Shown here: one piece after another, positions 9,125 through 47,179 of the stretch | Layout: each line of letters opens with the position of its first letter | Position numbering within the stretch: position 1 is the first letter of the stretch | DNA from: an uncultured Gammaproteobacteria bacterium | GTDB lineage: Bacteria > Patescibacteriota > Microgenomatia > 2-02-FULL-39-11 | Direction: 5' to 3' | DNA: 64,000 nt | Assembly: GCA_964544585.1 (NCBI GenBank) | Contig: CAZJBV010000001.1 | Location: forward strand, 45,330 to 109,329 | The notes under the pieces: generated by a model | Database searches by the model: none | What the model was told of the DNA's origin: nothing | What the model saw: only the letters and a program-made list of their open reading frames with translations | Program-made: the position numbers and the translations under genes

Positions 9125-9304
9125 TTAATTGATCTTCTTTTCCCTGTCATTGTTGATCTTTTTTATTCTTTCTTCAAAATGCTTTCCGTACATGGTACAA
9201 CCTTCTGTTCCGCATTTTATCAAGCCATTTTTATATCTTTCCTCTGAAATTTCTGCATGGCATGTACCAGTACAGACATAAACTTTAGTCATTTTGGAAT
9301 TCAT
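9125..9304 (-). CDS. Small zinc-ribbon protein (59 aa), not in supplied ORF track
   Basis: Manual translation MNSKMTKVYVCTGTCHAEISEERYKNGLIKCGTEGCTMYGKHFEERIKKINNDREKKIN: two Cys pairs CTGTC...CGTEGC; sits between antitoxin and ATPase genes. Confidence 0.3.
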   Translation of the reverse strand: MNSKMTKVYVCTGTCHAEISEERYKNGLIKCGTEGCTMYGKHFEERIKKINNDREKKIN

Positions 9305-9317
9305 ATTAATATGTATT

Positions 9318-10679: not shown

Positions 10680-10690
10680 ATTTTAGATGC

Positions 10691-10719
10691 ATTATAATGT
10701 ATCTAATGTATATTGTCAA
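10691..10719 (-). promoter_or_regulatory. Consensus sigma70-like promoter TTGACA-17nt-TATAAT giving a near-leaderless transcript for the DUF4143 ATPase
   Basis: Minus-strand reading: ccTTGACAatatacattagatacatTATAATgcatctaaaaATG; ATG about 11 nt after -10, no SD. Confidence 0.5.
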
Positions 10720-10727
10720 GGCTGTAC

Positions 10728-10743
10728 TTCAGGATAGTGGCAT
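10728..10743 (+). repeat. Intergenic repeat copy 3 (ttcaggatagtggcat)
   Basis: core GGATAGTGGCA, about 10 nt upstream of the -35 of the ATPase promoter (minus strand). Confidence 0.7.
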
Positions 10744-12265: not shown

Positions 12266-12330
12266 ATATTCCAGAATTAGTAAATATTACTACTAATTCT
12301 AGAACAAAATGGGTTAATTGTCAAGTTAGA

Positions 12331-13512
12331 TTAAAGAACTACTGGTGATAAAAACCCAGCTTTTTCCTGAAACTTCTTTGAGATTACAAAGGGTTGAGTT
12401 ATCCCAAGTTCAGATGATAACGCTGAAAGTTTGGTGAGATCTTGCGATGTACCAGTTAACTTTATCTCAAAAGCTGTATTTTTATCTAGGATAGCATCAA
12501 TTTCGGCAGTGTTACGTTTGTTATAAAAACTTACCTTACCGTAACTTGAAAGTTGATTGATAACAGCATTTTCAAATATTTGCGCTTCACTGAATTTTCC
12601 AATCACATTTAAAAGCCCTGTATCAGTAAAATAGACCTTTTTCCCTCCTGCCACAGCTCGATCGATACTTTTGCTAAACCGAGGCAGAAGTTTGATAAAA
12701 AATGTTCCTTGTAAGAATTCAAGAAATCGGTATATCTTAACTCTATCAATAGAAAGTTCACTTGATAGACGAGTTACATCAAGCATTGATCCAACTCGAG
12801 GTACTAGAAGTAAAATCATGTCCCGAAGTTCCCGAATATCTGAGTAATCGGATAAAATTTTAATATCTTTTTCAAAAAATGAGGCAAAGATATTTTTCAA
12901 AACCATTATCTTGGTATCCTTATCTTCTGTAGTTACTACCTCTGGAAAGCCACCATATGTTAGAAAATCCTCGTATTCAGCAATCCTGCCTTTATGAGTA
13001 AAAATACTATTTTTCTTATATGCATCTTGCAAAGTAAAATTTTGAACTTCTTTCAATGAAACCACATCTTTAAAATAAAGATATTCTTGGAAGCTTAAAG
13101 GAGGGATTTCATACAGGAATTTACGACCAGACAGTGATTCAGGAAATAGATTTTTAAGATAAAAGCTGGAAGAACCTGTTAAATAAAATTTAATGTTATG
13201 ATGGTCAATAAGATACTTAATGACTTTGGTAATTTCAGGGAAATTTTGAATTTCATCAATAAATACTGATAATTTGCCTTTCTTTTTTCCCATATCAGTC
13301 AGTCTTTTATAGATTACATTATAATCTTGATCTTCAAAGACTTTCTGATCGAGCGGGTTGTCAAAATCAAACCACAATTTTGGCTCTTTGACTTCCTCAA
13401 AGACTTGACGCATGAGGGTAGTCTTCCCAACCTGCCGCATTCCAGTAATAAGTAGTGCGTTTTTGTGATTAAGATACTTTACTAATTCGTAATATAAGAG
13501 CCTCTTTCTCAT
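12331..13512 (-). CDS. AAA+ ATPase with DUF4143-type C-terminal domain (COG1373-like), paralog
   Basis: Walker A GMRQVGKTTLMRQV; Walker B VFIDEIQ. Confidence 0.7.
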   Translation of the reverse strand: MRKRLLYYELVKYLNHKNALLITGMRQVGKTTLMRQVFEEVKEPKLWFDFDNPLDQKVFEDQDYNVIYKRLTDMGKKKGKLSVFIDEIQNFPEITKVIKYLIDHHNIKFYLTGSSSFYLKNLFPESLSGRKFLYEIPPLSFQEYLYFKDVVSLKEVQNFTLQDAYKKNSIFTHKGRIAEYEDFLTYGGFPEVVTTEDKDTKIMVLKNIFASFFEKDIKILSDYSDIRELRDMILLLVPRVGSMLDVTRLSSELSIDRVKIYRFLEFLQGTFFIKLLPRFSKSIDRAVAGGKKVYFTDTGLLNVIGKFSEAQIFENAVINQLSSYGKVSFYNKRNTAEIDAILDKNTAFEIKLTGTSQDLTKLSALSSELGITQPFVISKKFQEKAGFLSPVVL

Positions 13513-13559
13513 AGTGTAAATATATTATTACAAATCTGCACAAATTTGTAAAGTAATGT

Positions 13560-16244
13560 TTACACCCCTAATTGCGGGTAGTGGCATTTTTTCCATTTTT
13601 TACCCGACCCGCACCAGCAGGGGTCGTTGCGGCCGAGTTTTTTATTAGTTTGTGGTTTGTAGTTTGTAGGTTGTAGTTTATCTGCTTGTTTCTGAATGGG
13701 TGTTTGTTGCTCGCGGCGCATTTGTTGGAGTTGGTCCGGAGCGAGCTGGACCTGGACTTTGAATATTCTTTGGGTTATTTCGCTGTCGATTGCGAGAACG
13801 AGTCTTTCAAACATATCAAAGGCCTCATTTTTGTACTCGACTAGTGGGTCTCTCTGGCCATAACCGCGAAGGCCAATGCCTTCACGAAGGGTGTCGATGG
13901 CATCTAGATGATCCATCCAGAGATTGTCAACCACTTGAAGCATGACCCATTTTTCGACCTGCCTGGCTACAGCTTGCGTGAGTTGTTTTTCTCTCTGAAT
14001 GTATACGTCATGAACTAATTTATTTAAAAATAAAATAATATCTTCCTCAGTTTTATTTTGGGCAATTTTTTTGCTTAATTCCTCTTGTGAACGTGGATCA
14101 AAAGGAACAATCGAGGAAAATTCTGTAATAATTTCTTTTCTCTCATTCTCTGAGATACCACTTGCTGAGTGTACAGTAACGATGCGACTAATACTATTTT
14201 CCAGTTTTTCGATTATCATGGATTTGAGATTATTTCCTTCGAGTATTTTTTTTCTTAAGCCGTAAACTATTTCCCTTTGCTTATTGAGGACATCATCGTA
14301 TTCGACCAGATGCTTTCTTGAATCGAAATGAAAACCTTCTACTTTGACTTGGGCTTGTTCTATGGCGCGGCTCACCATGGCATGTTCGAGAGGAACGTCT
14401 TCCGGCAATTTAAAAATAGTCATCAATTTAGCCACTTGATCACCGCCAAAAAGGCGCATAATATCGTCATCGAGGGCAACATAGAATCTGGTCGAGCCCG
14501 GATCTCCTTGTCTTCCCGATCTTCCCCGCAGCTGATTGTCTATCCTTCTTGACTCGTGACGTTCTGTGCCGATGACATGGAGGCCGCCAAAAGAAACTAC
14601 TTCATCATGATTTTTCTGCCATCCATCATGGAGTTGTTTATATTCTTTATTTTTTTCACCACCCTCACTTAAGTATTTATCCGGCGGGAAACCGCCAAGG
14701 ATAATATCGACTCCGCGGCCGGCCATGTTGGTGGCTACAGTTACCGCACCTTTTTTGCCGGCATCGGCGATAAACATGGCTTCTTTTTCATGATTTTTGG
14801 CGTTTAGTAAATTGTGAGGAATGCCTTTTCTTCTTAAGAGTTCTGAAAGATATTCATTTTTTTCAATAGAAGTTGTACCTACTAGTACGGGTTGACCTCT
14901 TTTATATGAATCTTCGATATCTTTGACGACTGCATCAAATTTGGCTTTTGACGTTTTATAGACGCTATCCGGATAGTCGGTCCGTATCATTGGCTTATTT
15001 GTAGGAATTACAACAACATCCAGGTTATATATTTTGTGAAACTCTTCTGCCTCTGTAGCTGCAGTACCGGTCATGCCGGCGAGTTTTTCATACATTCTGA
15101 AATAGTTTTGCAGTGAAACTGTGGCGAGAGTTTTAGATTCCTGCTGGATGGGAACGCCTTCTTTGGCTTCTATGGCTTGATGCAATCCTTCGGAAAAACG
15201 TCGGCCGTGAAGAAGTCTTCCTGTAAATTCATCGACGATAATTACTTGATTGTCTTTGACGACATATTCTTTATCTATGTGGAATAGAGATTTGGCTTTG
15301 AGGGCAGCCTCCATATGATGGACGACTTCAAAATCTTTTTCGTATAGATTTTCTACTCCTAAAAGTTTTTCCACTTTTTCGATACCTTTTTCGGTTAAAT
15401 GAGCGGTGTGCATTTTTTCGTCGACGATAAATGATTCTCCCTCTTGTGAGACTCGATCGATTATTTTGGCATATTCGTAATACTTTTGGGTTGGTTCAGT
15501 ATCGGGAGCAGAAATGATATGAGGTGTACGAGCTTCATCGATCAAGACTGAGTCAACTTCATCAACTACTGCGTAATGGAATCCTCGTTGTGACATCTGG
15601 GAAATGTCGGAAACCATATTGTCGCGAAGGTAATCAAAACCAAATTCGCTGTTGATACCGTAAGTAACATCTGCTTTGTAAGCTTCTTTTCTTGTAATCT
15701 GCTTTAGGTTTCGGAGTCTCCAGTCTGTAGCAGAATTATCAGTAAAATCTGGATCAAATATAAAGGATTGGTCGTGAATAATGGCGGAGACGGAAACTCC
15801 CAAAAGATGAAAAATCGGCCCCATCCAGCCAGCATCACGTCTGGCTAGGTAATCGTTGACAGTGACAAGATGGACGCCTCTTCCGGTCAACGAGTTTAGG
15901 TAGAGTGCGGGAATGGCTGATAGAGTTTTTCCTTCTCCCGTTTTTTGCTCGGCGACGGCTCCTCGATGGAGGGTGTATGCAGCAACTAGCTGGACTTCAT
16001 AATGTTTTTCACCTATGGTTTTTTTGGCTGCTTCTCGGACGAGGGCGAATGCTTCGGGAAGAATATCATCAAGAGTTTCGCCTTTTGCCAGTCGACTTTT
16101 AAACTCGGCTGTTTTTTCCTTGAATTCGTCTTTTTTAAGCTTTGCCATTTGTTCGTCAAGAGAAAGGATCCTATCAATTGTAGGCTTTATTCTAACTATT
16201 TCTTTTTGATTTGCATCGAGGAATCGGGAGAGAAATTTGAACAT
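13560..16244 (-). CDS. secA: Preprotein translocase ATPase SecA
   Basis: 894 aa; DEAD-like motor motifs (GEGKTL, VDEVDS), C-terminal zinc-binding CWCGSGKKWKKCH. Confidence 0.95.
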   Translation of the reverse strand: MFKFLSRFLDANQKEIVRIKPTIDRILSLDEQMAKLKKDEFKEKTAEFKSRLAKGETLDDILPEAFALVREAAKKTIGEKHYEVQLVAAYTLHRGAVAEQKTGEGKTLSAIPALYLNSLTGRGVHLVTVNDYLARRDAGWMGPIFHLLGVSVSAIIHDQSFIFDPDFTDNSATDWRLRNLKQITRKEAYKADVTYGINSEFGFDYLRDNMVSDISQMSQRGFHYAVVDEVDSVLIDEARTPHIISAPDTEPTQKYYEYAKIIDRVSQEGESFIVDEKMHTAHLTEKGIEKVEKLLGVENLYEKDFEVVHHMEAALKAKSLFHIDKEYVVKDNQVIIVDEFTGRLLHGRRFSEGLHQAIEAKEGVPIQQESKTLATVSLQNYFRMYEKLAGMTGTAATEAEEFHKIYNLDVVVIPTNKPMIRTDYPDSVYKTSKAKFDAVVKDIEDSYKRGQPVLVGTTSIEKNEYLSELLRRKGIPHNLLNAKNHEKEAMFIADAGKKGAVTVATNMAGRGVDIILGGFPPDKYLSEGGEKNKEYKQLHDGWQKNHDEVVSFGGLHVIGTERHESRRIDNQLRGRSGRQGDPGSTRFYVALDDDIMRLFGGDQVAKLMTIFKLPEDVPLEHAMVSRAIEQAQVKVEGFHFDSRKHLVEYDDVLNKQREIVYGLRKKILEGNNLKSMIIEKLENSISRIVTVHSASGISENERKEIITEFSSIVPFDPRSQEELSKKIAQNKTEEDIILFLNKLVHDVYIQREKQLTQAVARQVEKWVMLQVVDNLWMDHLDAIDTLREGIGLRGYGQRDPLVEYKNEAFDMFERLVLAIDSEITQRIFKVQVQLAPDQLQQMRREQQTPIQKQADKLQPTNYKPQTNKKLGRNDPCWCGSGKKWKKCHYPQLGV
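13576..13602 (+). repeat. Intergenic repeat copy 4 (gggtagtggcattttttccatttttta)
   Basis: 24-bp perfect direct repeat of copy 1; lies between secA stop and second DUF4143 ATPase start. Confidence 0.85.
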
Positions 16245-31309: not shown

Positions 31310-32377
31310 TTATATGGGGTGAAGTCCGGGAAACTCTAATCCCGTAGTTTCAGGAAACCCATACATAATGTTCATGGCCTGAATTGCCTGGCCGGCAGTA
31401 CCTTTGCCTAGATTATCTATGGCGCCGATTGCAACTAGGCGATTTTCTCTTTCGGAGAGAGCAAAACCGATGTCGCAGTAGTTTGTACCTGTGAGGATTT
31501 TTGGCTCGGGAAAGCGATAGTTGCCTGTTTCTTTTTTGACAAGTCTTACAAATGGTTCGTTTTCGTAAGCTTGGCGATAAGCTTTCCAGACATCAAGTTC
31601 TTTTACGCCATGATGTGGTATGGCGTGGATTGTAACGAGGAGGCCGCGAACTATTTCAATGGTGGTAGCAGTGACAGAGACTTTTAGGTTTTTGACATAT
31701 GGCGATAATTCCTGTTCTATTTCAGCTGTGTGACGATGATTTATTGGCTTGTAAGTTCTGACTACGCCATGACGTTCAGGATGATGTGAAGAATAGGAAG
31801 GAGTATTCCCCCCTTGGGAACTGCTCATTTTGGCATCGATGATAATATCCGGCTTGATAAGTTTGTATTTGACAAGAGGATAAAGAGTTAAGATGGAGAC
31901 AGTAGCCTCACAGCCACCACATGAAACAAACGATGTTTTTTTTATTTTATGGCGATTGAGTTCGGCGATACCGTAGACAAATTTATTTAAAAGGGATGGA
32001 TATAAGTGAGTCGTTTTATACCAATCAGCAAAAATGCTTTTATCGTGCAAGCGAAAATCAGCGCCGAGGTCTATAATTTTTCTGGCACTTTTTTGGGCAA
32101 GGCGCATATATTCCATGGATTTGCCGTTGGGAAGAGCCAGAAATATGAGGTCGGTTTTTTTAATATCTTTAAATCGACAAAAAGTAAGATCTGTTATTTT
32201 TCTTAAGTTAGGATGAACTTCGCCGACTGGCAAACCTGCAAATTTGCGGGAAGTGACATATTTTAATTCAATGTAAGGATGAAAGAGGAGAATGCGAAGT
32301 AACTCTCCGCCTGCATACCCGGACCCGCCAATTATAGAAACAGATATTTTCCTGTTCATGATATTTTTTCCAGACAA
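31310..32377 (-). CDS. lysY: N-acetyl-gamma-glutamyl-phosphate / LysW-aminoadipyl-phosphate reductase (ArgC/LysY)
   Basis: VSIIGGSGYAGGELLR NAD-binding N-terminus, catalytic Cys region; 355 aa. Confidence 0.8.
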   Translation of the reverse strand: MSGKNIMNRKISVSIIGGSGYAGGELLRILLFHPYIELKYVTSRKFAGLPVGEVHPNLRKITDLTFCRFKDIKKTDLIFLALPNGKSMEYMRLAQKSARKIIDLGADFRLHDKSIFADWYKTTHLYPSLLNKFVYGIAELNRHKIKKTSFVSCGGCEATVSILTLYPLVKYKLIKPDIIIDAKMSSSQGGNTPSYSSHHPERHGVVRTYKPINHRHTAEIEQELSPYVKNLKVSVTATTIEIVRGLLVTIHAIPHHGVKELDVWKAYRQAYENEPFVRLVKKETGNYRFPEPKILTGTNYCDIGFALSERENRLVAIGAIDNLGKGTAGQAIQAMNIMYGFPETTGLEFPGLHPI

Positions 32378-33204
32378 TAATTAATAATTTCTCCTGCAAT
32401 GTTTACGTTTGTGACTCTTTGAACGTTTTTAAACTCCATGGTGTGATTGACTTCGTTTATGAGGAGTCCATCGTTTGTTTCAAAGACGTCTATTCCCAAT
32501 ACTCCCTCGCCTATTGCGGCAATAGTTTTTTGGGCGATATCCTCTAAATCTTTGGTAATTTTGCAGTTAAGAGGCAAGGCTCCGCGAGCTGTATTAGTGA
32601 TCCAATGATCACTCTTTCTATATATTGCAGCTATTGCATTACGTCCAATAACATTTAAGCGTATATCTCTTCCGTGCTTTTCTATATATTGCTGCATATA
32701 GAAGGCGTGGTGTGATGGTCCTCCTAAGACTGTTTTACTTTCTAAAATGGACTCGAGACTATCTAAGTCGTTTATTTTGGCTATAAGCCTCCCCCACGAT
32801 CCTGAAACCGGTTTTATAACAACAGGGAATCCCCCCCACGCTTCGACTGCAATCTTTGCTTGACGCTCACTAAATACCATACAAAATTTGGGTGTGGCGA
32901 CTTTATGTTTCCAAAGAGCTAAAGAGGTAATGAATTTATTCTCGCAGACTTGGGCGACAGAAAGAGAGTTTACACAAGGAATATTTAAACTGGCAAAAAA
33001 TTCCAGGGCGTGCATTCCTTTGACGGTTGAGACGCAACGCTCAAGAACGACGTCAAAGCCATAAGAATTATCCGGGTCGAAAATCTGTTCCCGGACATCA
33101 ATAATGTCAAGTGAAACTCTATTTTTTTTAGCTGCCTCGATGATGAGTTTTTCGTCGCCTCTTATGGTTGTATGTAAAAGGCCAATTTTTTTATTTTTTA
33201 GCAT
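32356..33204 (-). CDS. lysX: RimK-type ATP-grasp ligase LysX (LysW--alpha-aminoadipate ligase)
   Basis: 282 aa ATP-grasp; immediately downstream of lysW. Confidence 0.75.
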   Translation of the reverse strand: MLKNKKIGLLHTTIRGDEKLIIEAAKKNRVSLDIIDVREQIFDPDNSYGFDVVLERCVSTVKGMHALEFFASLNIPCVNSLSVAQVCENKFITSLALWKHKVATPKFCMVFSERQAKIAVEAWGGFPVVIKPVSGSWGRLIAKINDLDSLESILESKTVLGGPSHHAFYMQQYIEKHGRDIRLNVIGRNAIAAIYRKSDHWITNTARGALPLNCKITKDLEDIAQKTIAAIGEGVLGIDVFETNDGLLINEVNHTMEFKNVQRVTNVNIAGEIINYCLEKIS

Positions 33205-33207
33205 ATT

Positions 33208-33393
33208 TTATTGCCCCCAATCTTCTTCAACTTTTGGAGCTTCTTTTAAATTAAATTTACTACTTTTGTTGTCGACTGAGACTACTTCAAGCTTTGAACC
33301 ACAATCCTTACAGGAAATAATTTCCGAAACTTCAACGGATGTAATCTTTATATTTGCGTCACATATGGGACAACTACCTAGCATAAAAATCAC
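33208..33393 (-). CDS. lysW: Amino-group carrier protein LysW
   Basis: 61 aa; zinc ribbon CPICD...CKDCG; acidic C-terminus EEDWGQ (LysW EDWGE-like tail); strong RBS AAGGAGGTG. Confidence 0.8.
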   Translation of the reverse strand: MIFMLGSCPICDANIKITSVEVSEIISCKDCGSKLEVVSVDNKSSKFNLKEAPKVEEDWGQ

Positions 33394-34256: not shown

Positions 34257-34285
34257 TTGTCAAGACAATCTTGAGGCTATATAAT
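34257..34285 (+). promoter_or_regulatory. Putative sigma70-like promoter for tRNA-Glu (TTGTCA-17-TATAAT)
   Basis: ggcTTGTCAagacaatcttgaggctaTATAATacc about 28 nt upstream of tRNA 5' end. Confidence 0.35.
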
Positions 34286-35915
34286 ACCTACTGAGGCTAA
34301 ATAAAAGCTTTTTGCCGCCATCGTCTAGTGGCCCAGGACGGTACCTTCTCAAGGTACAAATCGGGGGTTCGAATCCCCCTGGCGGTACCCAGTTCCGACT
34401 TGTCGGGGCCGCCCGCAGGGCGGCCCAAGGTTCGCGCGCGTTACCGCGCGCTATTTTGTGGTTGAGAGTCAGGTTCGAGCCGAAGATTTTTTGGGCCAAT
34501 ACCTTTTTCTGGTATAAATCATTGCCCCTTGCGATGTTTGCCGCGCTAGCGGCATCTATAACCCATGTCCGCATGGGTTCGAGCCAAGCATTTTGCGTTT
34601 GTTCAAATGTTTTTACTTTCTCTTCCAGCGTCTTCTTGATATTTAACAGTTCAGCTTTTTTAAAGCGGTACGTTTCTATATCAATTTCCTGATCCAAATA
34701 AGCATCTAGAAGACGCTGTAACTTGATATTAATATTTTCAATTTCCATTTTTTTCATTTGAACAAACGCTCGGCAGGATTGGGCAGTGTCTTTTTCTTCC
34801 TCTTTGAGTTTAACTAACATTCTATTTGCCCAATCCTGACGTAAAGAAACTTTTTGAATAAGGCTGGATAGCTGCCTATCCAGGACTTCTTCGCGAATAT
34901 AAAGTTCGCGGCAAGAAATTGTTTTGGATTTTTTGGTACACCTATAATAAGTATGGCCTTTTTGAATTTCAGCTGTAATCATCATGCCGCAACTACTGCA
35001 GCGAAGAAGCCGGGCAAATGGTTTGGGGATTCTTCCCTTGTCTTTGATATGTTGGGGCTTACTCCTGTCTTTCAAAACCATTTGCACTTTATCAAAAAGT
35101 TTCTTGGAAATGATGGGCTCGTGGATTCCCTCGTATAATTCTCCACCAAACCGAAAGAAACCGACATAAAACGGGTCGGAAAGTACATATTTAATTCTGT
35201 CTTTATGAAGAGGCTTGTTACCTCTTGAGAAAATACCATGACGAGCCAAAAAGTCAGATATATCTTCAAGTCTTGATTCATTTTGGGCATAGATACCAAA
35301 TGCAAGGGAAATGTAGGGTGATTTAAATTTATCAACTACAATTTTCTTAGTCCTGACATTATTTAGATACCCGATGGGTGCCAGACTGGGAAATTCTCCT
35401 TTTCTTACTTTTTGGCGAAGTCCTCTTTTGGTATTTTCAGAGAGGGAATCCACATAGTACTTACTTTGCCCAAACGCAATATTGAGCATAAATTTACCCT
35501 GCGGAGTGGATTCAAACCAGAATTGGGGAAATTTGAGAAACTTGATTTTACCAGTATCAACTAGATAAATAATCCTTCCTCCATCTATACTATTGCGCGC
35601 AAGTCTATCCGGATGCCAAGCCAAGATACCGGCGGCTTCACCTTTTTCAATTCTCTCAATCATAGAATTGAAAACAGGACGGCCGGGAATCTTGGCCGAT
35701 TGTTTCTCAATAAGTTCCTCAATAATGGAAATTGACTCACGTTTGGCAAATTCCCTAAGCTCCGTAATCTGTGCCTCGATAGATAATACCTGTTTATCCT
35801 CTGTATCTGTAGACTTGCGCGCATACAAAAATAATTTTTGCAGAGTTGGTAATTGAGATCTTAAATACTCTTTTGGAGGTCTTGTTATGAGATTGTTGGC
35901 AGGAGTGGTAATCAT
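34260..35915 (-). CDS. Large serine recombinase (resolvase/invertase catalytic domain + recombinase domain + zinc ribbon + coiled coil); 3' end as drawn reads through inverted repeat and antisense tRNA
   Basis: YARKSTDTEDKQ...SIEAQ catalytic Ser region, zinc ribbon CSSCGMM...YYRCTKK, long coiled coil; C-terminal ~70 aa are Ala/Arg/Pro/Gly-rich translation of GC-rich IR and tRNA antisense, so true C-terminus uncertain. Confidence 0.75.
   Translation of the reverse strand: MITTPANNLITRPPKEYLRSQLPTLQKLFLYARKSTDTEDKQVLSIEAQITELREFAKRESISIIEELIEKQSAKIPGRPVFNSMIERIEKGEAAGILAWHPDRLARNSIDGGRIIYLVDTGKIKFLKFPQFWFESTPQGKFMLNIAFGQSKYYVDSLSENTKRGLRQKVRKGEFPSLAPIGYLNNVRTKKIVVDKFKSPYISLAFGIYAQNESRLEDISDFLARHGIFSRGNKPLHKDRIKYVLSDPFYVGFFRFGGELYEGIHEPIISKKLFDKVQMVLKDRSKPQHIKDKGRIPKPFARLLRCSSCGMMITAEIQKGHTYYRCTKKSKTISCRELYIREEVLDRQLSSLIQKVSLRQDWANRMLVKLKEEEKDTAQSCRAFVQMKKMEIENINIKLQRLLDAYLDQEIDIETYRFKKAELLNIKKTLEEKVKTFEQTQNAWLEPMRTWVIDAASAANIARGNDLYQKKVLAQKIFGSNLTLNHKIARGNAREPWAALRAAPTSRNWVPPGGFEPPICTLRRYRPGPLDDGGKKLLFSLSRYYIASRLS
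34314..34387 (+). tRNA. tRNA-Glu (anticodon CUC)
   Basis: Cloverleaf readable: acceptor GCCGCCA/UGGCGGU, D-arm TCGTCTAGTGGCCCAGGACG, anticodon stem GTACC/GGTAC with loop TTCTCAA (CTC), T-arm GGGGGTTCGAATCCCCC; CCA not encoded. Confidence 0.85.
34386..34485. repeat. IR1 left copy: ~100-bp GC-rich inverted repeat starting at the tRNA-Glu discriminator base
   Basis: acccagttccgacttgtcggggccgcccgcagggcggcccaaggttcgcgcgcgttaccgcgcgctattttgtggttgagagtca... reverse-complement of 36106..36200; contains internal palindromes GGCCGCCCGCAGGGCGGCC and GCGCGCGTTACCGCGCGC. Confidence 0.9.
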
Positions 35916-36105: not shown

Positions 36106-36200
36106 TTCGGCTCATGACTCTCAACCACAAAATAGCGCGCGGTAACGCGCGCGAACCTTGGGCCGCCCTGCGGGCGGCCCCGACAAGTCGGAACTGGGTA
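36106..36200. repeat. IR1 right copy (inverted), abutting IR2
   Basis: Reverse complement matches 34386..34471 perfectly, then 4-5-nt indel, then gagccgaag matches again. Confidence 0.9.
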
Positions 36201-36387
36201 AGCCTTTACAGTTACGCTCGAAACTATTTTATAAATAATTCTTAGTATTATAAATAAAATGTTGCGATGAGGAAAAGGGGTAAAGGGGAAAAGGAATCAT
36301 CGCAACATAAACCTTATTGCTCGGCCGCTTCGCGGCCTCGCATTATCCCAGGCCTCTCCTTCTCATTCTCTCTTTGGGAAATTTTCG
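36199..36387. repeat. IR2 left copy: ~190-bp inverted repeat bounding the cargo module
   Basis: Reverse-complement of 45440..45629 essentially perfect over ~190 bp; internal palindromes (gttgcgatga...tcatcgcaac; GGCCGCTTCGCGGCC). Confidence 0.9.
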
Positions 36388-36569
36388 AAATTTTTTAAAG
36401 CCTTCTTATAGGTCGCTAACGAGAATATTTATTAGAAAAAGGAGAATATTTTGTCAGAAATATCATGAAAATAGCAAAATACTAGCTACCATATAAAACT
36501 GTCAACAAACGCATAGCTTCATAATTATTTTTACTGTCTTTATCTTTCCAAAGTTTTTCGGTCATAAAA

Positions 36570-39500
36570 TCAACTGGCATTATTTTTAAGCCATGTTTGT
36601 TTAAAGTCGTAGTATTTAGGATTTCTCTCCATGAGCCCAGCAAACAATTTTTCTACTTGCTCTTTGTGGGTTTTAATAGAAGTTAAGTATTCGACTGCAA
36701 CATCAAGGTCGTTTGCAATTAACAGATCAGTTGGATAATCAACGAGTTTTTTAAACCAACGTAAAAATTCTTGGTTGCCTTTTACCTGCGCAATTTTTAC
36801 CAATATTTTTCCATTATAGAAGAATGGCCACCAATACATGTCAGGAAGATTATCTTTAGTATAGTTATCTTTAAAATACTGATACTCCGTTTCAATACAT
36901 TTCTTCCAAAGGTCAAAACACACATCAAAATGTTCTTCAATATAATCCTCAACAAAACGATAGATATTCTCAAAAGTCCTGTGGTCGTAGGTTACTGTCA
37001 TATACTCAAGATAATAAGCGGCGAGTTTTACAGCATCTTCAAACTTCGGTGTATCTTTTACCTCATGGGGTATACGTACCATTTGCCAAGCAAAAATTTG
37101 CTTAATTTCTGGATCACCACTTTTTACCAGACTAATCAATAATTTCTTAAAGGGTCTGTCATCAAACTTTCCTAGTGGTTCCCAGTCCTTTGGCCAGTCC
37201 TTGAAAGATTGTATTCTGTATTCAGCAAAAAATATGTATAATGGTGCTGCTTCGCTTAATACATCTGCTAAATATGATTCATGTCCTCTTTGTTTGTCTT
37301 TTTTAGGATACTCATTTTTAAGAAATATTTGTAAAACTTCAAATGCCTTCTTTTGATCTATACTTCTCATGTAAGTAAACACCATCGCCAAATGTTTCAT
37401 AATGGCAGGTAATTCGTGATTAACCAAATCACGTAGCATCAAAAAAGCTAAATCCTCTATTTTCTTAGAAATTTCAACTTGCAGAAATCTCTCTTTTCTA
37501 TTATCTGGAAGCACAGTGTTACGATTTTTTACTAACTCTAAAAGGGGAATACAAGATTGTAATCGTACATAATAATTTTTATCCTTAGTTAGCTTTTCAA
37601 CTAGAGGTAGAATTGCAGGTATATGTTTTCTTCCATAAAGAGTCGCAAATTTTTGTAAAACCCACGCGCAGTAACCTCTGACAGAACCAATTGATAAGTC
37701 ATCTTCACCGCCTATAATTTTTTGATGTCTATTAAAATTACCTTCTGGATCATCAAAGTAATTCTCAAGTATAGGATCGCTATCTTTTATAAAAATATTT
37801 AGTATGTAAAGAGTCTCATCAAACAATTTTACTTCGGCCAGTTTTTCAGCAAACTGTACAATTTGCTCTCTTGAGTGTCGGTTCGTAATTCTTTCTTCAG
37901 TTTTTGATATGTCATCGCCTAGGTTTTGTAAGAACGGGTATACAAAATCTTTATAAACCCCTTGGATTACTTCTTTGTTTTCTTTTGGTAAATCGTTTAT
38001 TGAACTGCAAATTAGAATTTGTTGATTTAATGTAAGAGTTCTTGAAGAGCCCACTTCTTTTAAAATGCTTACTCCAATACCCAGGTTTTTGACTATAATC
38101 TTGGCAAGATTTTTAGCCACCTCCCATGTCTCCCAATCGTCATCCTTCTTAACAAATTCATCGCTTGTGATGTAACTTATAAAAATCTTAACACCCTCAT
38201 CAAAAGTTTCTGGATTATCTAAAAGTTTAGAGATATTACCCATTACATTAAACGAACCTATGGTTTGTCTTTTGTGATATTCGGGATTCGTTATCCAGCT
38301 TGCGATAATAGCAGCTGCTTCTTTGTGCCTTTCTGCCGCCAAATCTGAAGTTATTTGCTCAACAAAAACGTTAGCCGATAAATTATTATATTCATCAAGA
38401 CTGACTTTTATTAGCGCCCACTTTTGCTCTTTTGTATAATCACCTCTCAATTCTTGGAATATTAAGTCTGCTTTCCATGGAATACCTTTTCTCATTCTTA
38501 CGAAGTCGCTTAAAATGTCAAAGGCTTCGGAGCTATGTTTACCACCTTTATATTCTGCAAAAATAACTGGAATTGAAGCACGATTGAGGAAATCTGGCTT
38601 ATTACTAGAAACATCACTTATTTTCCTAGCTATACAATTTTTGATAATAAACTTCCAATTCTTTTCACTATTTTTGTATAGTTCTTGCAAAGCTGGTCTG
38701 ATAATGTATCTTACAAAGTGGTTGTCTAAGATCGAAAAATTACTACCTGATTGAGAAATTCCGCTACCTGCTAAATCCCATCCATCAAACTTCCATTTCA
38801 AGCGAAACCTACCATAAAAATTATTGTAATGCTTCACACAAAGCTCTTTAAACCAAATAATCCTTTCTTCCGGATTTTCTATTACATAATCTCTAAAAAT
38901 CTCGAAAATAGCGGTAGGGGTATAATGCCAGTACTCCCCATGATCTTCTATAAGATTGAAAGTTTTACTTAGGTATTCAATAATTTCTTCTTTAAGTTTT
39001 CTATCTTTTGTATCTTGATATAGTTTTGTTAATAATTTACTAATTTTCTCTCTTTCCCATTTATCGTCTCTATGTCTTGATTTTTTTTCGGTATAGAAAA
39101 AGTCACTGATACTCGGACTAAATAATTTCTTAATCACTTCAAAAACTTTGCGATTAAGCTTAGGATTTACATCTAAAATTTTTTGACACAGTCGTGCAAT
39201 ATCAGTTTTGATAAATTCTTCTCTAAAGAAGTTGTAACTTCCGTCTTCCAGCACTTTATCTGCAAAATCCAGCGAGTATTCTTGATTATCTTTTGTAGGT
39301 AAGTTGTTTTCAAATATTTGAAATAGGTGCACAGAAAATGCGCTCTTAACTGTAGCCTCCCATAGATTATCCCATTGACTTAAATTTAAGTTTTGCTTGT
39401 CTTTGAGTCTCATCAACGCGTAGTAAAATTCCGAAGGGAGATTAGAAAGTTCAGAAATCTTATTGTTAGCCCATTTTTTCTTCTCTGGATTTTCTATAGC

Positions 39501-40178
39501 TTCAATAAGCCCTTTGATGTCTTTTTCGGCAGTTTGTCTCTCTTTTTCATAACCTGCGTCTTCAAGTATTTGAGTTTTTCTTTTATCTAGTTTCTTCAAA
39601 AAAACCTCGGCTGTTAAAGTCTTCCCTGCTGCCGATCCATCGTACACTTCCTGTTTAACAAGATGATCTCTTATTTCCTCCAGTGTATGTTTTGGGACCC
39701 AAACCTGAAGAAGTTTTGCGACTAAAAGCTCTACTATTTTTTCACTCATTTCTTTTGGAACCTCCCAAATTTTTAACTGTGCCAAAAGTTCAAAATGATA
39801 ATCTTTAAAATTGTGTGGTTTTTTGGCGAGCCTCTCTCTTACTCGATCTTGAAAGTATTTATAATTTTCAATATCGTTCTTAGCAGATCTATTTACCCCT
39901 TTGCAAATAATCACTATTTCATCCTGTTTGGTTACTTGGCCGTGCTCGTGAATTTTATCGAGAATATCTCTAATATCTGCGTAGTTTAAAATTGAGTCTT
40001 TTGATTCACAAATTATTTTTCGGCCATCCTCAAAGACCAAATAAAAATCTTCAAGCTTGTCACCTTCAAAACCAATATATCTAAAATCTGAACGTTTAAC
40101 ATATTGAAGAAACAGCGACATAGCTGCCCAAGCTTGGGCATTAACTCCTTTAACGTTATATTGACCCTGCTTACTCAT
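36570..40178 (-). CDS. 1202-aa protein: N-terminal restriction-endonuclease-like (PD-(D/E)xK) domain followed by ~1000 aa of alpha-helical (HEAT/ARM-like) repeats
   Basis: N-terminal LEDFYLVFEDGRKIICESKD (D...ExK); remainder helical repeat composition (e.g. LPLVEKLTKDKNYYVRLQSCIPLLELV); start overlaps stop of upstream 209-aa gene (ATGA). Confidence 0.5.
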   Translation of the reverse strand: MSKQGQYNVKGVNAQAWAAMSLFLQYVKRSDFRYIGFEGDKLEDFYLVFEDGRKIICESKDSILNYADIRDILDKIHEHGQVTKQDEIVIICKGVNRSAKNDIENYKYFQDRVRERLAKKPHNFKDYHFELLAQLKIWEVPKEMSEKIVELLVAKLLQVWVPKHTLEEIRDHLVKQEVYDGSAAGKTLTAEVFLKKLDKRKTQILEDAGYEKERQTAEKDIKGLIEAIENPEKKKWANNKISELSNLPSEFYYALMRLKDKQNLNLSQWDNLWEATVKSAFSVHLFQIFENNLPTKDNQEYSLDFADKVLEDGSYNFFREEFIKTDIARLCQKILDVNPKLNRKVFEVIKKLFSPSISDFFYTEKKSRHRDDKWEREKISKLLTKLYQDTKDRKLKEEIIEYLSKTFNLIEDHGEYWHYTPTAIFEIFRDYVIENPEERIIWFKELCVKHYNNFYGRFRLKWKFDGWDLAGSGISQSGSNFSILDNHFVRYIIRPALQELYKNSEKNWKFIIKNCIARKISDVSSNKPDFLNRASIPVIFAEYKGGKHSSEAFDILSDFVRMRKGIPWKADLIFQELRGDYTKEQKWALIKVSLDEYNNLSANVFVEQITSDLAAERHKEAAAIIASWITNPEYHKRQTIGSFNVMGNISKLLDNPETFDEGVKIFISYITSDEFVKKDDDWETWEVAKNLAKIIVKNLGIGVSILKEVGSSRTLTLNQQILICSSINDLPKENKEVIQGVYKDFVYPFLQNLGDDISKTEERITNRHSREQIVQFAEKLAEVKLFDETLYILNIFIKDSDPILENYFDDPEGNFNRHQKIIGGEDDLSIGSVRGYCAWVLQKFATLYGRKHIPAILPLVEKLTKDKNYYVRLQSCIPLLELVKNRNTVLPDNRKERFLQVEISKKIEDLAFLMLRDLVNHELPAIMKHLAMVFTYMRSIDQKKAFEVLQIFLKNEYPKKDKQRGHESYLADVLSEAAPLYIFFAEYRIQSFKDWPKDWEPLGKFDDRPFKKLLISLVKSGDPEIKQIFAWQMVRIPHEVKDTPKFEDAVKLAAYYLEYMTVTYDHRTFENIYRFVEDYIEEHFDVCFDLWKKCIETEYQYFKDNYTKDNLPDMYWWPFFYNGKILVKIAQVKGNQEFLRWFKKLVDYPTDLLIANDLDVAVEYLTSIKTHKEQVEKLFAGLMERNPKYYDFKQTWLKNNAS

Positions 40179-40180
40179 AA

Positions 40181-40810
40181 CTAGATGACCCCACTTTCTA
40201 CCTCGGAAGATATTGGTAGTGTAATACCGTTTATATTGGTATCTTTATGTGAAATAATTTTTTGACAAAATTCTTCAAAGTTATCGCAAGAGAAAACATA
40301 AGTTTTACCGATCACCGGACTAAAGTCATGTATTAGTGTGCGCACAACTTCACTTAGTTTATTCAGATCAAAAACTCTAAAATTTCTGAATTTTTTATCT
40401 GCAAATACCTCTGAAGCAAGATAATCATTTGCATCTCTGTTAATGTTGCCGTTACAGATAAAGTAGAATTCTTCAATGTATACTTTTAATGAAAAATCTA
40501 TAGGAGAGGAGAGGGGAATATCTAAAGCTTCTTCTATGGCTCCCTTAAATGATCTAATGTCATTGTTTCCGCTTTTTGTTATATCACCAGCTTTTATAAA
40601 AACGCAACAATGTCGAGCTTTTTTGAATAAGTCTTTATAAGAAAAGTATAAATCCTTACCCTTTTCGTTCCGGCCATGCATATCAACAACTGGATGTGCA
40701 CCCATAGCTTTTAATAAAGGGATGAGTATTTTTATCCTAAGATCGTCTTCGAGAAGCTCTCCTAATAGTGTCTGAACATCTTTAACCATCTGTATTTTTT
40801 TCAACCACAT
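40181..40810 (-). CDS. Mrr-cat-like (type IV restriction endonuclease catalytic domain-like) small protein
   Basis: LLKAMGAHPVVDMHGRNEKGKD...CVFIKAG resembles Mrr catalytic core (LLEAMGY...D...QCK); translationally coupled to 1202-aa gene. Confidence 0.4.
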   Translation of the reverse strand: MWLKKIQMVKDVQTLLGELLEDDLRIKILIPLLKAMGAHPVVDMHGRNEKGKDLYFSYKDLFKKARHCCVFIKAGDITKSGNNDIRSFKGAIEEALDIPLSSPIDFSLKVYIEEFYFICNGNINRDANDYLASEVFADKKFRNFRVFDLNKLSEVVRTLIHDFSPVIGKTYVFSCDNFEEFCQKIISHKDTNINGITLPISSEVESGVI

Positions 40811-41047
40811 TGGTTTCTTCCTGCCTAAGGCCGTAGAGTTTATAAACTAACTCATCAATCTGCCGTTCGTGGCCGAGTGCTTGGTGCTTATCTTTTTCCA
40901 AGATGGTTTTCTTCCAGTCAGATGATAGTGCTTATATATAGGCTTGTCAATTGATCTAAAAAGAGGTAAAAGGATTCAGTATGAAATTCTCATGAGGTAT
41001 AATAATCAAATATAGTAAAGAGTTTAGTTTTACTAATATTTATTACA

Positions 41048-43227: not shown

Positions 43228-43766
43228 ATTCCTAACTTTTTTGATTTTGCTTCTTTTTCTGCAGATAATAATTGTTGCTGATAAATAAGTGGTTTTCTTT
43301 TTTCGTATATTGTAACTTTGGCTAATCCTCTTTTTGCCAACTCAATCGCAAGATTTTTGTCACTAATAATAATGTATGCAAGAATTCTTCCGAATCTGTC
43401 TGATTTATACTCATCGTATTCAATATTTACTTTTTTTCCTTCAACGAGTCTTTTAGCAAATTCTGTAGACTCTTCATCAAAAGGTTGTCCGTGATCCGGA
43501 GTATTTACTCCGACAAGTCGGACGATTTGTCCGTTTTGTAATTCGAGAGTATCCCCATCTATGACTCTTTTGATTTTGGCTTCTTTGGGAAACTCTATGA
43601 CTTGACTGGAGTTTATAATAGGCTGGTTTTCAATCGCATCTTTAATCTCACTTTCATACTTAGTCCCTGCAAAAAATGAGGAGAATGATAAAAGCAGGGC
43701 AAGAGGAATAAGGACATATTTGTTTTTATTTGACTTTTTGTTTTGGGGTTTGGATTTTGGTTTCAT
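43206..43766 (-). CDS. Thermonuclease / staphylococcal nuclease (SNase) homolog, secreted
   Basis: N-terminal signal anchor; SNase core VIDGDTLEL...VRLVGVNTPD...RFGRILAYI. Confidence 0.75.
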   Translation of the reverse strand: MKPKSKPQNKKSNKNKYVLIPLALLLSFSSFFAGTKYESEIKDAIENQPIINSSQVIEFPKEAKIKRVIDGDTLELQNGQIVRLVGVNTPDHGQPFDEESTEFAKRLVEGKKVNIEYDEYKSDRFGRILAYIIISDKNLAIELAKRGLAKVTIYEKRKPLIYQQQLLSAEKEAKSKKLGIWSKQNI

Positions 43767-44853
43767 AAAGTGTATTTTGCCCCACCTCGAATACCCTGTT
43801 GTTTGAGTAATCCCTTCTTTTCCAGTTCAGTCAGATAGTTAGTGGCAGTGCTTTGAGATACTCGACATAATCTTTGCACATCGGTGTTGGTTATGGTTCC
43901 CGTTTCTTTGATAAAGAGCATGATTTTATCTAAGTTTTTCTGTCTTTTGTTGAGTCTTTTTGCGTTGGCTTTCTGGCGAAGAGAGGATATGCCTTCCTTC
44001 GCTGAAGCTTCGGCGGCTAAAGGAGATTGGGGTAATGGGGGAGATGGGGGAATTTGGGGAGTAACCGCAGGAGATGGCTTCGGTGGGACGATGGGTTCTA
44101 TATTTATTTTTGGTTCATCCTGCAGGGACTGGTCTAATTGGGAGGGAGAGGTGTTTCCATGCAAGATATCTCCAAACGAAGATGGCTTGGGAAGAATAGA
44201 AGGAGCAGAAGAAATAGGAGGATTTGATGAAGATGGCGGATTTTCTTTCGCTAGGATCTCGCCGAAAGAGCTTTTGGGAGAGGTGGGAGGCTTAATTTCT
44301 TCTGTTTTTTGAGAATTGCCATTGGCCAATGGAGCGTTCTGGACTGGTTTTGGTGGCTCAGTCTTGATATTGGCCAAGTCGGGAGGAACTTGAAATGTTG
44401 TATTTATAGATGCACTATCTGACGGGCCGGATTGCACTTGAGACGGTGCAATTGGAGTAGTAGTGACAGAAACGGGAGGTGTAGAAATGTCGTTAGGAGA
44501 TGAAGGAGATTGGGGTAATGGGGGAGATATGGGAGAGTCGGAATCGTCCGATGAGGACGGATTGGCCAGATTGGAGGAAGATGTAATCTCGGTGGGTTTC
44601 GGCTCAATCGATGGTGGAGCAACATGGCCAGAATCCGTAGCCGTCTGATTGGTCAAGTCTGGATGAGCCGAACTATTATTGGCCAATGGAGTTTCTACTG
44701 ATTGGCCAGATGTTGATGCTTCCTTGGGAGCCTCATTGGCCATTTTGGTGGAAATTGGCCAAGTGGGATCAGATGTATTGGCCAATTGTGAATCGGCCAG
44801 CTTATCCTGAACTTGGCCAATAATACTTCCTTGCTGGAACTGATCATCAGCCA
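43763..44853 (-). CDS. Pro/Ser-rich low-complexity protein with C-terminal winged-helix DNA-binding domain
   Basis: Likely start MADDQF (44853) rather than ORF-track start; C-terminus ITNTDVQRLCRVSQSTATNYLTELEKKGLLKQQG is wHTH-like; internal ~30-bp direct repeats encode PISPPLPQSP repeats. Confidence 0.45.
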
Positions 44854-44975
44854 TATTAAATCCAGTATACAACAAAGTAAATGGCCAAGTGATTGGCCAA
44901 CACAAAAAGCAACATGGCCATTTTGGTGGAAATTGGCCAAGTGGAAAAAATAATTGGCCAAGTAATAATCGCCAG
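44680..44975. repeat. Dense cluster of ~13 ATTGGCCAA (TGGCCA palindrome) motifs incl. a 28-bp direct repeat
   Basis: TGGCCA occurs about 13 times in ~300 bp spanning the 5' end/upstream region of the wHTH gene; ccattttggtggaaattggccaagtgg repeated at 44738 and 44917. Confidence 0.8.
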
Positions 44976-44999
44976 TGGTCACCCACCCGTGCAATGCTC

Positions 45000-45439: not shown

Positions 45440-45629
45440 CGAAAATTTCCCAAAGAGAGAATGAGAAGGAGAGGCCTGGGATAATGCGAGGCCGCGAAGC
45501 GGCCGAGCAATAAGGTTTATGTTGCGATGATTCCTTTTCCCCTTTACCCCTTTTCCTCATCGCAACATTTTATTTATAATACTAAGAATTATTTATAAAA
45601 TAGTTTCGAGCGTAACTGTAAAGGCTTAC
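45440..45629. repeat. IR2 right copy (inverted)
   Basis: cgaaaatttcccaaagagagaatgagaaggagaggcctggg...tagtttcgagcgtaactgtaaaggcttac is the reverse complement of 36199..36387. Confidence 0.9.
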
Positions 45630-47179
45630 AAAGTCTCTGCGTCTCTTTTAGTTATAACCGTAAATTTATAGGGGCTAGATTTGTTTGAAAAGTAGGCAGT
45701 ATTGGGTAATTGTTCAATATCCTGACCAAAATAGTACTTTAAAATCAAGCGAAAAGTATTTACTGGAGTTATTTCTGGGTATATTAGTTTATCCCCTCCG
45801 AGAGGTAAGTAATAAGCATTGAGGATGGCCATTTTTTGTCTCTTTTCTTCTTCTGTTGCATTTTTCCAATCAAAATTCAGTTCACCTTTTCTGTATGCTT
45901 CCGGGTATGGTCCTTCATCGCCCTGAATAATTATAATGGGTGGATTTTCTTTTGATTTTTCCATGATCGTGTTTACCAATTCCTGTATTTTTTTATTGGC
46001 GAATACTATTTGTTCCTCATAGTTTCTTTTTTCACTTCTTTTATCCGTTTCCTCCTGACTTAAGCAATTTCCATCTTTGTCAAAGACATATGGTTCATGC
46101 GTTAGGAGAAAATGAGCAAATGTAAACGTAGGTTTTGAAATATCAGGCACTTTGGCAATTTCGTCAAACTTGTAGTAAGGTCTTTTGCAGTGAGTGAGCC
46201 GGCTATTAAAAAGCGGGATATTTAGCTTTATTGTAAGTGGATGAAATAATGATTTGCTATACACAATCTCTGAAAACTCAGAGAGCGAAGGCAAATTAAT
46301 ATTTTTATCTGCATTTCTATTCCAGGCCGTTGGACCCCACCATGAGCCGGCATGGATATAGAGATAACCATTTGATTTTAGAAATCTTAAGACAGAATAA
46401 TCCTCAATAAGATCAATAAGGGGTCTAATATCATCTGATTGTCTACCTAAAGATTTTATTAGATCGTCATGATATTCCATATTCAAAGATGAGGATAATG
46501 ATAATTGAGTTTGGGTATAATTTGCCCATGATTTTTGGGGAATAGAAAAATTGCTATCCTGTAGAAACTTTATAAATTGAGAATTGTCAAACTGGTACAC
46601 ATTTTCTAAAATATCGCTTCTTCCATAACGGTCGAATACAAAATAGTAAATATCAGGAGGATTTTTCTGATTTGAGCTGGTCACCTGCCAGGTATATGTT
46701 TTTTCATTCACAGCATAATTCAAAGAATATAATATGTCATATTTTATTATTTCGAAAAGAGATGGAATTAAGAGTGCAATTCCAATAAAGTTAGATATCA
46801 GCATTATCGATATTAGATTGGATTTACTCTTAAGGATTAGGTAGCTTGTTAAGAAAATTATTGCTATTGCAGCAATAAAACCAGGGGTTTGTTTTCCTTG
46901 GAGAAGACTATCTAAAGGTGACTGCCGAAGCAAATCAAAAATATGCCCGTAGCTTAGAATGACTAGTGCTGAGAGGGAAACAATAAGTGATGATTTATAA
47001 ATATTCTTTATAAATATATTCAGAAGAGCAAAGACAAACAAGGTACAGGCCACAATAAAAAATAGAGGCAAAAAAATGCCTGAAATGTGAATTCCTGTAA
47101 TGTTGTGGCTGTAGATAAAAAAGATAGGATAGGAAGAAATAAGAATGGGAAGGAGGATGGGAAATAAATTTTTTCTCAT
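45626..47179 (-). CDS. Membrane-anchored sulfatase/alkaline-phosphatase-superfamily protein (LTA synthase / phosphotransferase-like)
   Basis: N-terminal ~5 TM helices; extracytoplasmic sulfatase-like domain (YYFVFDRYGRSD...); 517 aa. Confidence 0.55.
   Translation of the reverse strand: MRKNLFPILLPILISSYPIFFIYSHNITGIHISGIFLPLFFIVACTLFVFALLNIFIKNIYKSSLIVSLSALVILSYGHIFDLLRQSPLDSLLQGKQTPGFIAAIAIIFLTSYLILKSKSNLISIMLISNFIGIALLIPSLFEIIKYDILYSLNYAVNEKTYTWQVTSSNQKNPPDIYYFVFDRYGRSDILENVYQFDNSQFIKFLQDSNFSIPQKSWANYTQTQLSLSSSLNMEYHDDLIKSLGRQSDDIRPLIDLIEDYSVLRFLKSNGYLYIHAGSWWGPTAWNRNADKNINLPSLSEFSEIVYSKSLFHPLTIKLNIPLFNSRLTHCKRPYYKFDEIAKVPDISKPTFTFAHFLLTHEPYVFDKDGNCLSQEETDKRSEKRNYEEQIVFANKKIQELVNTIMEKSKENPPIIIIQGDEGPYPEAYRKGELNFDWKNATEEEKRQKMAILNAYYLPLGGDKLIYPEITPVNTFRLILKYYFGQDIEQLPNTAYFSNKSSPYKFTVITKRDAETL

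Follow-up and report, generated by a model that had tools for sequence, protein, structure and literature searches.

What do two adjacent, unnamed genes in the DNA of an uncultivated bacterium encode, and could they defend their host against phages? The genes lie on the minus strand of a 64,000-nucleotide (nt) stretch, hereafter the window (positions 45,330 to 109,329 of contig CAZJBV010000001.1, assembly GCA_964544585.1), as intact open reading frames (ORFs) of 209 amino acids (aa) at 40181..40810 and 1202 aa at 36570..40178. An original prediction, made from the sequence letters, had placed both ORFs at exactly these positions, with these sizes, and proposed that they form an uncharacterised defence or nuclease system. 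The analysis reported here points to an unnamed two-gene module, in which a large helical-repeat protein with a nuclease domain of its own is paired with a small, exchangeable protein of nuclease fold encoded immediately upstream. We infer that the module is an anti-phage or anti-mobile-element system that works independently of any nucleoside triphosphatase (NTPase), a reading to which we give a probability of roughly 60%.

The N terminus of the large protein provides the first part of the answer. In the AlphaFold2 model of the large protein, which covers residues 1-1200 and rests on 94 sequences (predicted local distance difference test score, pLDDT, 88.6; predicted template modelling score, pTM, 0.69), this head has an alpha-beta-beta-beta-alpha-beta core, with a helix at residues 14-26, strands at 32-37, 45-49 and 54-59, a helix at 66-79 and a strand at 87-92. 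Residues E38, D44 and E58-S59-K60 are invariant in 94 large-protein homologs, and E38, D44, E58 and K60 also in a 29-sequence set; these four predicted catalytic residues are encoded within 39999-40067 of the minus strand. The D...ExK signature on which the original prediction relied, LVFEDGRKIICESKD, is real, and its E58 and K60 are among the invariant residues; the D of its 'FED', however, is not conserved, whereas E38 and D44 are. Profile-profile alignment with hhalign joins the head to the Cap4-like partner proteins of other loci (94.4% probability, E = 9e-8), with E38, D44, E58 and K60 aligned to the E, D and QxK catalytic residues of those partners. By structure comparison, the head is similar to solved Cap4-type domains, with Avs3 among the matches. 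The Pfam model PF14130 (Cap4_nuclease) matches 0 of 40 large proteins; because this model misses the head and the link runs via the partners, we regard the head as a divergent relative of Cap4 and not as a Pfam-defined member. Taken together, model, profile alignment and conserved residues indicate that the large protein begins with a divergent Cap4-type PD-(D/E)xK nuclease domain, at the terminus where a nuclease had been predicted.

Behind the head, some 1000 residues of HEAT/ARM-like repeats had been expected, and the model bears this out. The body is an all-helical solenoid of stacked helical hairpin repeats, in which many residues, P528, D529, R533, P567, K569, R770, D799, P802, N868, R988, Y1073 and E1098 among them, are invariant across the family, and its structural matches are generic HEAT/ARM scaffolds: PP2A-A, IntS4, symplekin, importins, CAND1 and MMS19. 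Designed repeat proteins were all that sequence-profile searches of the PDB found, whether the whole protein or just the head served as query. Homology of the body to the defence proteins DSR2 or Upx was considered and rejected, neither being among the top structural matches. The string GSAAGKT is present in the large protein and was rejected as a P-loop, in line with the original reading of it: the spacing GxxxGKT is wrong, and the family conserves only S182 and G185, not the lysine. Domain searches matched no NTPase family to the large protein or its homologs.

The small protein has a nuclease fold as well. It contains LLKAMGAHPVVDMHGRNEKGKD...CVFIKAG, the stretch in which an Mrr-like catalytic core had been read, and the Pfam model Mrr_cat (PF04471) matches it below the gathering threshold (15.7 bits against a cut-off of 21, E = 0.016). 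The AlphaFold2 model, which like the residue conservation is based on 9 homologs, has a pLDDT of 74.8, a pTM of 0.73 and, again, an alpha-beta-beta-beta-alpha-beta core; in structure comparison its closest folds are the nuclease domains of FokI, AF1548 (Mrr-like), AspBHI and LlaBIII. As modelled, then, the small protein is a restriction-endonuclease fold, and a nuclease fold is found both here and in the head of the large protein. D53, K73, E94 and E114 are invariant in the 9 homologs. Two residues before K73 stands F71 (V in L022), which is no acid, and the canonical middle acid is missing. E94 or E114 might substitute for it; for E94, Cfr10I/NgoMIV-type sites offer an analogy.

The two genes are tightly coupled. 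At their junction the sequence reads ...ATC TAG tt ATG AGT..., with a 2-nt spacer between stop and start, and the claim that the stop of the small gene overlaps the ATG of the large one was mistaken. The gap between partner and large gene is -8, -4 or +2 to +7 nt at every partner-bearing locus, and because this range holds in all of them, tight coupling is a family-wide property. The small ORF may start at M1 (40810, with GGAAG before it) or at M8 (40789); gene callers differ here, giving 209 or 202 aa. A promoter-like site upstream of the small gene (Table 1) is a match to the consensus, which is no evidence of function. The window matches the Candidatus Gottesmanbacteria contig JACPKX010000015.1, in which both products (MBI2611512.1 and MBI2611511.1) are labelled 'hypothetical protein'.

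How widely does the large protein occur? A word-indexed search found 121 relatives, mostly full-length and down to 29% identity, none with a functional name and the labelled ones called 'hypothetical'. An exhaustive profile search of 1.84 billion representatives returned 512 proteins at E<=1e-3 and 308 at E<=1e-30, and the family comprises at least 308 clusters at 50% identity. Its hosts include many classes of Patescibacteria, Deltaproteobacteria, Margulisiibacteriota, Armatimonadota, Elusimicrobia, a Heimdallarchaeon and metagenome-assembled genomes (MAGs) labelled Gammaproteobacteria. Five loci (L008, L011, L014, L031 and L039) come from MAGs titled 'uncultured Gammaproteobacteria', which are co-assembly bins; among genome-collection relatives, the large proteins of loci so titled come closest to the Gottesmanbacteria one, with identities of up to 56%, which reflects either doubtful taxonomic labels or wide transfer. 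Neither NCBIfam nor Pfam has a model for the large protein, and searches with both proteins and 40 homologs gave a weak HEAT match and the sub-threshold Mrr_cat match at most. No member of the family was found in 72,556 PLSDB plasmids, 50,697 INPHARED phage genomes or IMG/VR contigs. Searches of the available literature found no named system with this architecture; PADLOC was run as well, and no curated Pfam, NCBIfam or PADLOC model matches, in agreement with the original statement that the pair is not any named system.

The occurrence of homologous pairs in other genomes had been put forward as a check on the prediction. A nuclease-family gene on the same strand abuts the start of the large gene in 29 of the 32 evaluable loci, and a recurrence of this order argues against a chance juxtaposition. 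Four classes of partner, types A to D, can be told apart, mutually without detectable similarity (Table 1), and all four are known defence effector domains. Among them, Pfam gave five matches to Cap4_nuclease and seven to SLFN_AlbA_2, and several partners match the PADLOC effector models HamA, LmuA, SAVED-PDDEXK and CARF-PDDEXK. In the large-protein tree the partner types lie interleaved, and sister proteins are found with differing partners: L028 (D) and L029 (B), L006 (A) and L016 (C), L004 (A) and L014 (B). This interleaving implies that the partner has been exchanged often, the pattern expected of swappable effectors.

Moreover, the head itself can be lost or replaced. About 20 'headless' bodies of 950-1020 aa begin at profile position about 220 (P0158, P0172, P0182 and others), and those at L049 and L048 keep an upstream partner, of type A and of type C (the type of the window), respectively. 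In other members the Cap4 head is replaced by fusion, with a type D domain joined to the body in P0177 and P0192 and a type A domain in P0196; judged by these sequences, partner and body are linked by Rosetta-stone fusions. Since headless, fused and partner-swapped forms all exist, the body appears to be the constant module and the nucleases interchangeable. Some members (P0181, P0200) have an extra N-terminal XRE-type helix-turn-helix (HTH) ahead of the head. A conserved third gene was considered and rejected: the downstream gene, though often coupled, comes from many unrelated families (PDDEXK_1, DUF2779, DUF2726, RhuM, GIY-YIG, TspO, Shedu SduA_C, NERD, serine recombinases and uncharacterised genes). 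At L030, where a nuclease partner is lacking, a YgjP-like metallopeptidase gene (3120-3839) lies between type I HsdR and the large gene, 135 nt ahead of the latter.

Restriction genes are frequent neighbours. In ten loci a restriction-system gene (type I, III, IIG-like or IV) directly precedes the partner on the same strand, often overlapping it, and upstream neighbours overall are rich in ResIII, N6_N4_Mtase, HSDR_N, N6_Mtase and Methylase_S. One alternative is that the pair serves restriction-modification systems as an accessory or guard, working with or watching the adjacent enzyme. As a guard it would be a back-up nuclease freed when a phage anti-restriction protein binds, like PrrC with EcoprrI; as an accessory it would supply extra cleavage subunits that are recruited to stalled restriction complexes. 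The anticodon nuclease PrrC of EcoprrI is a precedent for the former. The partner gene begins at or inside the end of the same-strand restriction gene in all ten loci, and in the window the small gene is still fused, at its start, with the last codons of a methyltransferase. However, the neighbours are of four restriction types that differ in mechanism, which speaks against any specific physical partnership; some two thirds of the loci, the window included, have no restriction gene directly upstream; and any defence gene in a defence island adjoins restriction systems. We consider a guard or accessory role unlikely and prefer to read the pair as a defence module. As for its being a restriction-modification system in its own right, no cognate methyltransferase was found: the window keeps a 40-residue tail only, and many loci have no methyltransferase.

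That tail corresponds to the last ~40 codons (IDELVYKLYGL...) of the methyltransferase. At L001, the closest relative, the enzyme is intact at 1055 aa and ends inside the small gene. The 85% nucleotide identity between the window and L001 is confined to 36578-40863, that is, to the two genes and 53 nt upstream, and the flanks are unrelated. The proteins of the pair are 88% identical between the two organisms, and a shared S26 peptidase, encoded elsewhere in the window, has just 42% aa identity; this disparity indicates that the cassette moved between distinct organisms. The rest of the L001 island (PLD-SNF2, methyltransferase, PDDEXK_1, trypsin-like protease and S26 peptidase) is absent near the window pair, which, as the retained tail shows, was cut out of a larger restriction island like that of L001. 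At L001 itself (1-16200), the co-directional genes are a serine recombinase, HTH_17, a PLD+SNF2 helicase (1055 aa), the MmeI-like methyltransferase (1055 aa), the pair itself, PDDEXK_1 and a Trypsin_2 protease, with genes for a 141-aa protein and the S26 peptidase next in line; L014 shares the same two ~1100-aa upstream genes. The L001 block may be a larger, DISARM/BREX-like composite system.

These neighbourhoods bear on a further alternative, that the pair is a housekeeping complex for nucleic-acid processing or repair, in which the HEAT scaffold holds nucleases as in Integrator (IntS4-IntS9/11) or symplekin-CPSF73/100. The resemblance of the body to IntS4 and symplekin is of the generic kind described above. 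Against such a role, the family is patchy across phyla, its surroundings are variable, mobile and restriction-rich, proteins 88% identical occur in organisms that share other genes at about 42% identity, and the partner gene is replaced by unrelated nuclease families. We consider a housekeeping role most improbable; the homologs sit among restriction-modification genes and mobile DNA, and not in the housekeeping contexts that would have told against the original prediction.

Is the pair tied to a mobile element? Downstream of the large gene lies an intact large serine recombinase gene (Table 1), whose 3' end runs antisense across tRNA-Glu(CTC) (34313-34391, plus strand); the record of JACPKX010000015.1 has no gene called across this 2.4-kb recombinase/tRNA-Glu stretch. 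Homologous recombinases lie directly downstream of the large gene at L009 (42% identity) and L026 (33%), and one lies upstream at L001. The pair could on this account be a selfish addiction or stabilisation module of small recombinase-borne elements, similar to a toxin-antitoxin system, with a nuclease toxin and its restrainer and with the element as beneficiary. Cassette-like homology and the tight coupling of the two genes fit that idea. In most loci, however, no recombinase is beside the pair; a conserved 1200-residue solenoid with many invariant residues far exceeds what an antitoxin needs; and none of the 72,556 plasmids or 50,697 phage genomes gave a match. Addiction is, in our judgement, very unlikely, and an immune function remains the better account.

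The tRNA-linked mobile island of the original prediction stands in part: the serine recombinase and the pair do adjoin tRNA-Glu, but nothing further of such an island was found, and odd long inverted repeats lie around. No direct repeats that could serve as att sites were found. An empty-site relative, from which the borders of the island could be fixed, was not found either; every contig with the neighbouring 475-aa gene also has the pair. An 86-nt inverted repeat, 100% identical with extensions of 92-93%, brackets the recombinase (34386-34471 and 36115-36200), with the left arm reaching the 3' end of tRNA-Glu. A second, of 195 nt (99%), at 36193-36387 and 45440-45634, brackets a 9-kb segment with the pair and five more genes. 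Two stretches located at or within the repeat arms, 36340-36400 and 45581-45645, are missing from the NCBI contig, which otherwise equals the window; a Logan contig stops within one of the arms. The repeats could mark invertible segments, an inversion polymorphism or an assembly artefact.

Several observations weigh against a two-gene defence system. Three loci (L009, L030 and L036) have no partner, so the partner is not strictly obligatory. A mutual-information scan for large-protein positions specific to partner type gave no clear docking signal. The validated defence models of PADLOC match 0 of 40 family members. In structure comparison the solenoid shows generic HEAT similarity alone, with no pointer to a ligand. 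Judging by its sequence, the small protein, with F71 in the (D/E/Q) position, could be catalytically dead and act as a regulator. Finally, the window pair, stripped of its restriction neighbours, could be a relic, though both of its ORFs are intact.

How might such a pair work? The ~980-residue solenoid would be the constant part, a sensor or scaffold, and the output would come from nucleases, namely the built-in Cap4-type head and the exchangeable small protein. In the resting state, the solenoid would hold the nucleases apart or keep them occluded. A ligand that arises from infection, most plausibly a phage protein, would then bind the solenoid, and a conformational change or oligomerisation would unite nuclease domains, either head with head or head with partner. 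DNA would be cut as a result; with a Schlafen-type partner the target would perhaps be RNA or tRNA instead, a second kind of target that one report gives for Schlafen-type effectors (PMC13056530). That the solenoid senses an infection cue and then licenses the nucleases is suggested by analogy with DSR2. In CBASS, Lamassu and Avs3, Cap4 domains serve as effectors that dimerisation activates, and in Lamassu the activating step may be dimerisation or oligomerisation (10.1101/2025.06.23.660979). Two likenesses make a heterodimer of head and partner attractive. The small protein is similar to FokI and to the small subunit of R.BspD6I, neither of which cuts unless paired, and at type A loci the head has a Cap4 paralogue as its partner. 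Pairing of head and partner is conjecture, drawn from these likenesses. A bolder version would see here a new NTPase-free class of immune receptor in lineages of the candidate phyla radiation (CPR) and other uncultivated groups, whose body reads a conserved phage component (or, should the module guard the restriction systems that it often follows, an anti-restriction protein) and fires a Cap4 DNase together with a swappable DNA- or tRNA-cutting effector; we regard this as rather doubtful.

Table 1. Features of the window (window coordinates) and of related loci (L numbers)
Feature	Location	Strand	Size	Description and basis
Small partner gene	40181..40810	-		Type C, short Mrr/FokI-like PD-(D/E)xK fold
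Gene junction TAG-tt-ATG	40176..40183	-		Small-gene stop, 2-nt spacer, large-gene start
Head of large protein	39534..40178	-	Residues 1 to about 215	Cap4/DUF4297-type PD-(D/E)xK endonuclease domain (model)
Body of large protein	36573..39521	-	Residues about 220-1202	All-alpha HEAT/ARM-like solenoid, presumed sensor/scaffold
Candidate active-site residues of small protein	40529..40654	-		D53 (40652-40654), K73 (40592-40594), E94 (40529-40531)
Methyltransferase C-terminal tail remnant	40788..40907	-		MmeI/Eco57I-type, ending ...IDELVYKLYGLRQEETNVVEKNTDG and a stop codon; overlaps small-gene start; tblastn of L001 methyltransferase residues 1015-1054
Promoter-like site TTGACA-17-TATCAT	40922..40950	-		11/12 matches, ~110 nt 5' of small gene; consensus scan only
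Large serine recombinase gene	34260..35915	-	551 aa	Intact, 655 nt downstream of large gene; NCBIfam CcrB/XisF-like
Type A partner	11 loci		about 265-310 aa	Cap4_nuclease; Pfam, best E 5e-8
Type B partner	9 loci		about 265-280 aa	Schlafen/AlbA_2; Pfam, best E 6e-19
Type C partner	5 loci including window		190-209 aa	Mrr/FokI-like, short; fold match
Type D partner	4 loci		about 360 aa	G.D...E.K motif, Mrr-like, long; alignment
MmeI/Eco57I-type methyltransferase upstream	L001, L008, L014			PLD-SNF2 protein ahead in L001
Type III Res upstream	L016, L025			
Type I HsdR upstream	L021, L029, L030, L039			
GmrSD upstream	L038			

Two other parts of the window were noted. Genes for LysX-like (282 aa) and LysW-like zinc-ribbon (58-61 aa) proteins adjoin greA at 32356-33393 on the minus strand; LysX and LysW are components of amino-group-carrier-protein biosynthesis. 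A 407-aa ORF (363 aa in the NCBI record) at 43763-44986, also on the minus strand, has a long low-complexity region rich in Pro and Ser, a local G+C content of 47%, short direct repeats (44020-44534 and 44737-44944) and an exact 30-nt duplication. The NCBI record lists weak or faint HTH_24 and MarR matches only for this ORF.

If the pair does serve defence, current defence-finding tools overlook a sizeable family of several phyla (at least 308 clusters at 50% identity), which has been missed because it lies almost entirely in uncultivated lineages such as Patescibacteria and has no plasmid or phage matches. The known defence repertoires of such lineages look sparse. The family is also a natural experiment in effector modularity, in which one putative sensor occurs with four partner nucleases, fused to a partner or headless; and since it is often found at the 3' ends of restriction operons, of four kinds in all, the restriction-guard idea can be tested directly. 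Many candidate defence systems of the sensor-plus-nuclease kind exist. This one, if the reading is true, would be a case of ATP-independent coupling between a large repeat sensor and Cap4-type nucleases. Elsewhere, such nucleases are under the control of cyclic nucleotides, SMC proteins, helicases or STAND NTPases.

Is the pair, then, a variant of a system already described? In DSR2, an N-terminal effector is joined to a cavity of HEAT repeats that binds the phage tail tube protein, which switches the effector on (PMC11263360). Both proteins are large (~1000 aa in DSR2) and NTPase-free, with an enzymatic effector at the N terminus and a long helical HEAT region. In DSR2, however, the effector is a SIR2 NADase and no second gene is obligatory, whereas the window protein has a nuclease N terminus; Pfam and PADLOC searches found neither a SIR2 domain nor a match to the Dsr models in the large protein or 40 homologs. 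The resemblance to DSR2 is one of design, with no detectable homology.

Lamassu (LmuA) and Hachiman (HamA/AbpA) share the plan of a small nuclease that a large sensor holds in check and that becomes active on release and oligomerisation, as two reports describe it (10.1101/2025.06.23.660979; PMC12278908). LmuA of Lamassu, like the partner here, comes with many alternative effector domains. The sensors differ: in those systems they are an SMC protein (LmuB) or a helicase (HamB), and here the sensor would be an ATP-independent solenoid that itself bears a nuclease. The window has no LmuB, LmuC or HamB gene; no SMC/LmuB gene lies beside the pair in the window or the examined loci, where LmuA-like domains occur in partners only; and no helicase or NTPase domain was found in the large protein, as HamB would have.

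Upx, a single-protein PD-(D/E)xK defence (Gao 2020) of about 1200-1270 aa, is NTPase-free, has been described as a dual nuclease and senses the phage terminase (PMC13099982, PMC13601566). It shares its size, its freedom from NTPases and, if the small protein does cut, its dual-nuclease design with the pair. The order is reversed, however: Upx has its canonical nuclease at the C terminus and a beta-rich sensor at the N terminus, and in the window the nucleases are on two polypeptides. The pair gave no PADLOC match to Upx and no PDB sequence match to the Upx structure. CBASS Cap4 and Avs3 have the same type of nuclease domain as the head, whereas the window pair is without a SAVED/CARF ligand domain, a cyclase gene or a STAND NTPase; for the last of these, which defines Avs, no NTPase family matched and GSAAGKT is no P-loop. 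From FokI and heterodimeric type IIS enzymes such as R.BspD6I, with its large and small subunits, the pair differs in having no recognisable DNA-recognition domain and in lacking the middle catalytic acid. The pair lacks a defining feature of each of the named defence systems, and it is of a known kind, sensor plus nuclease effector, built on an unrelated sensor.

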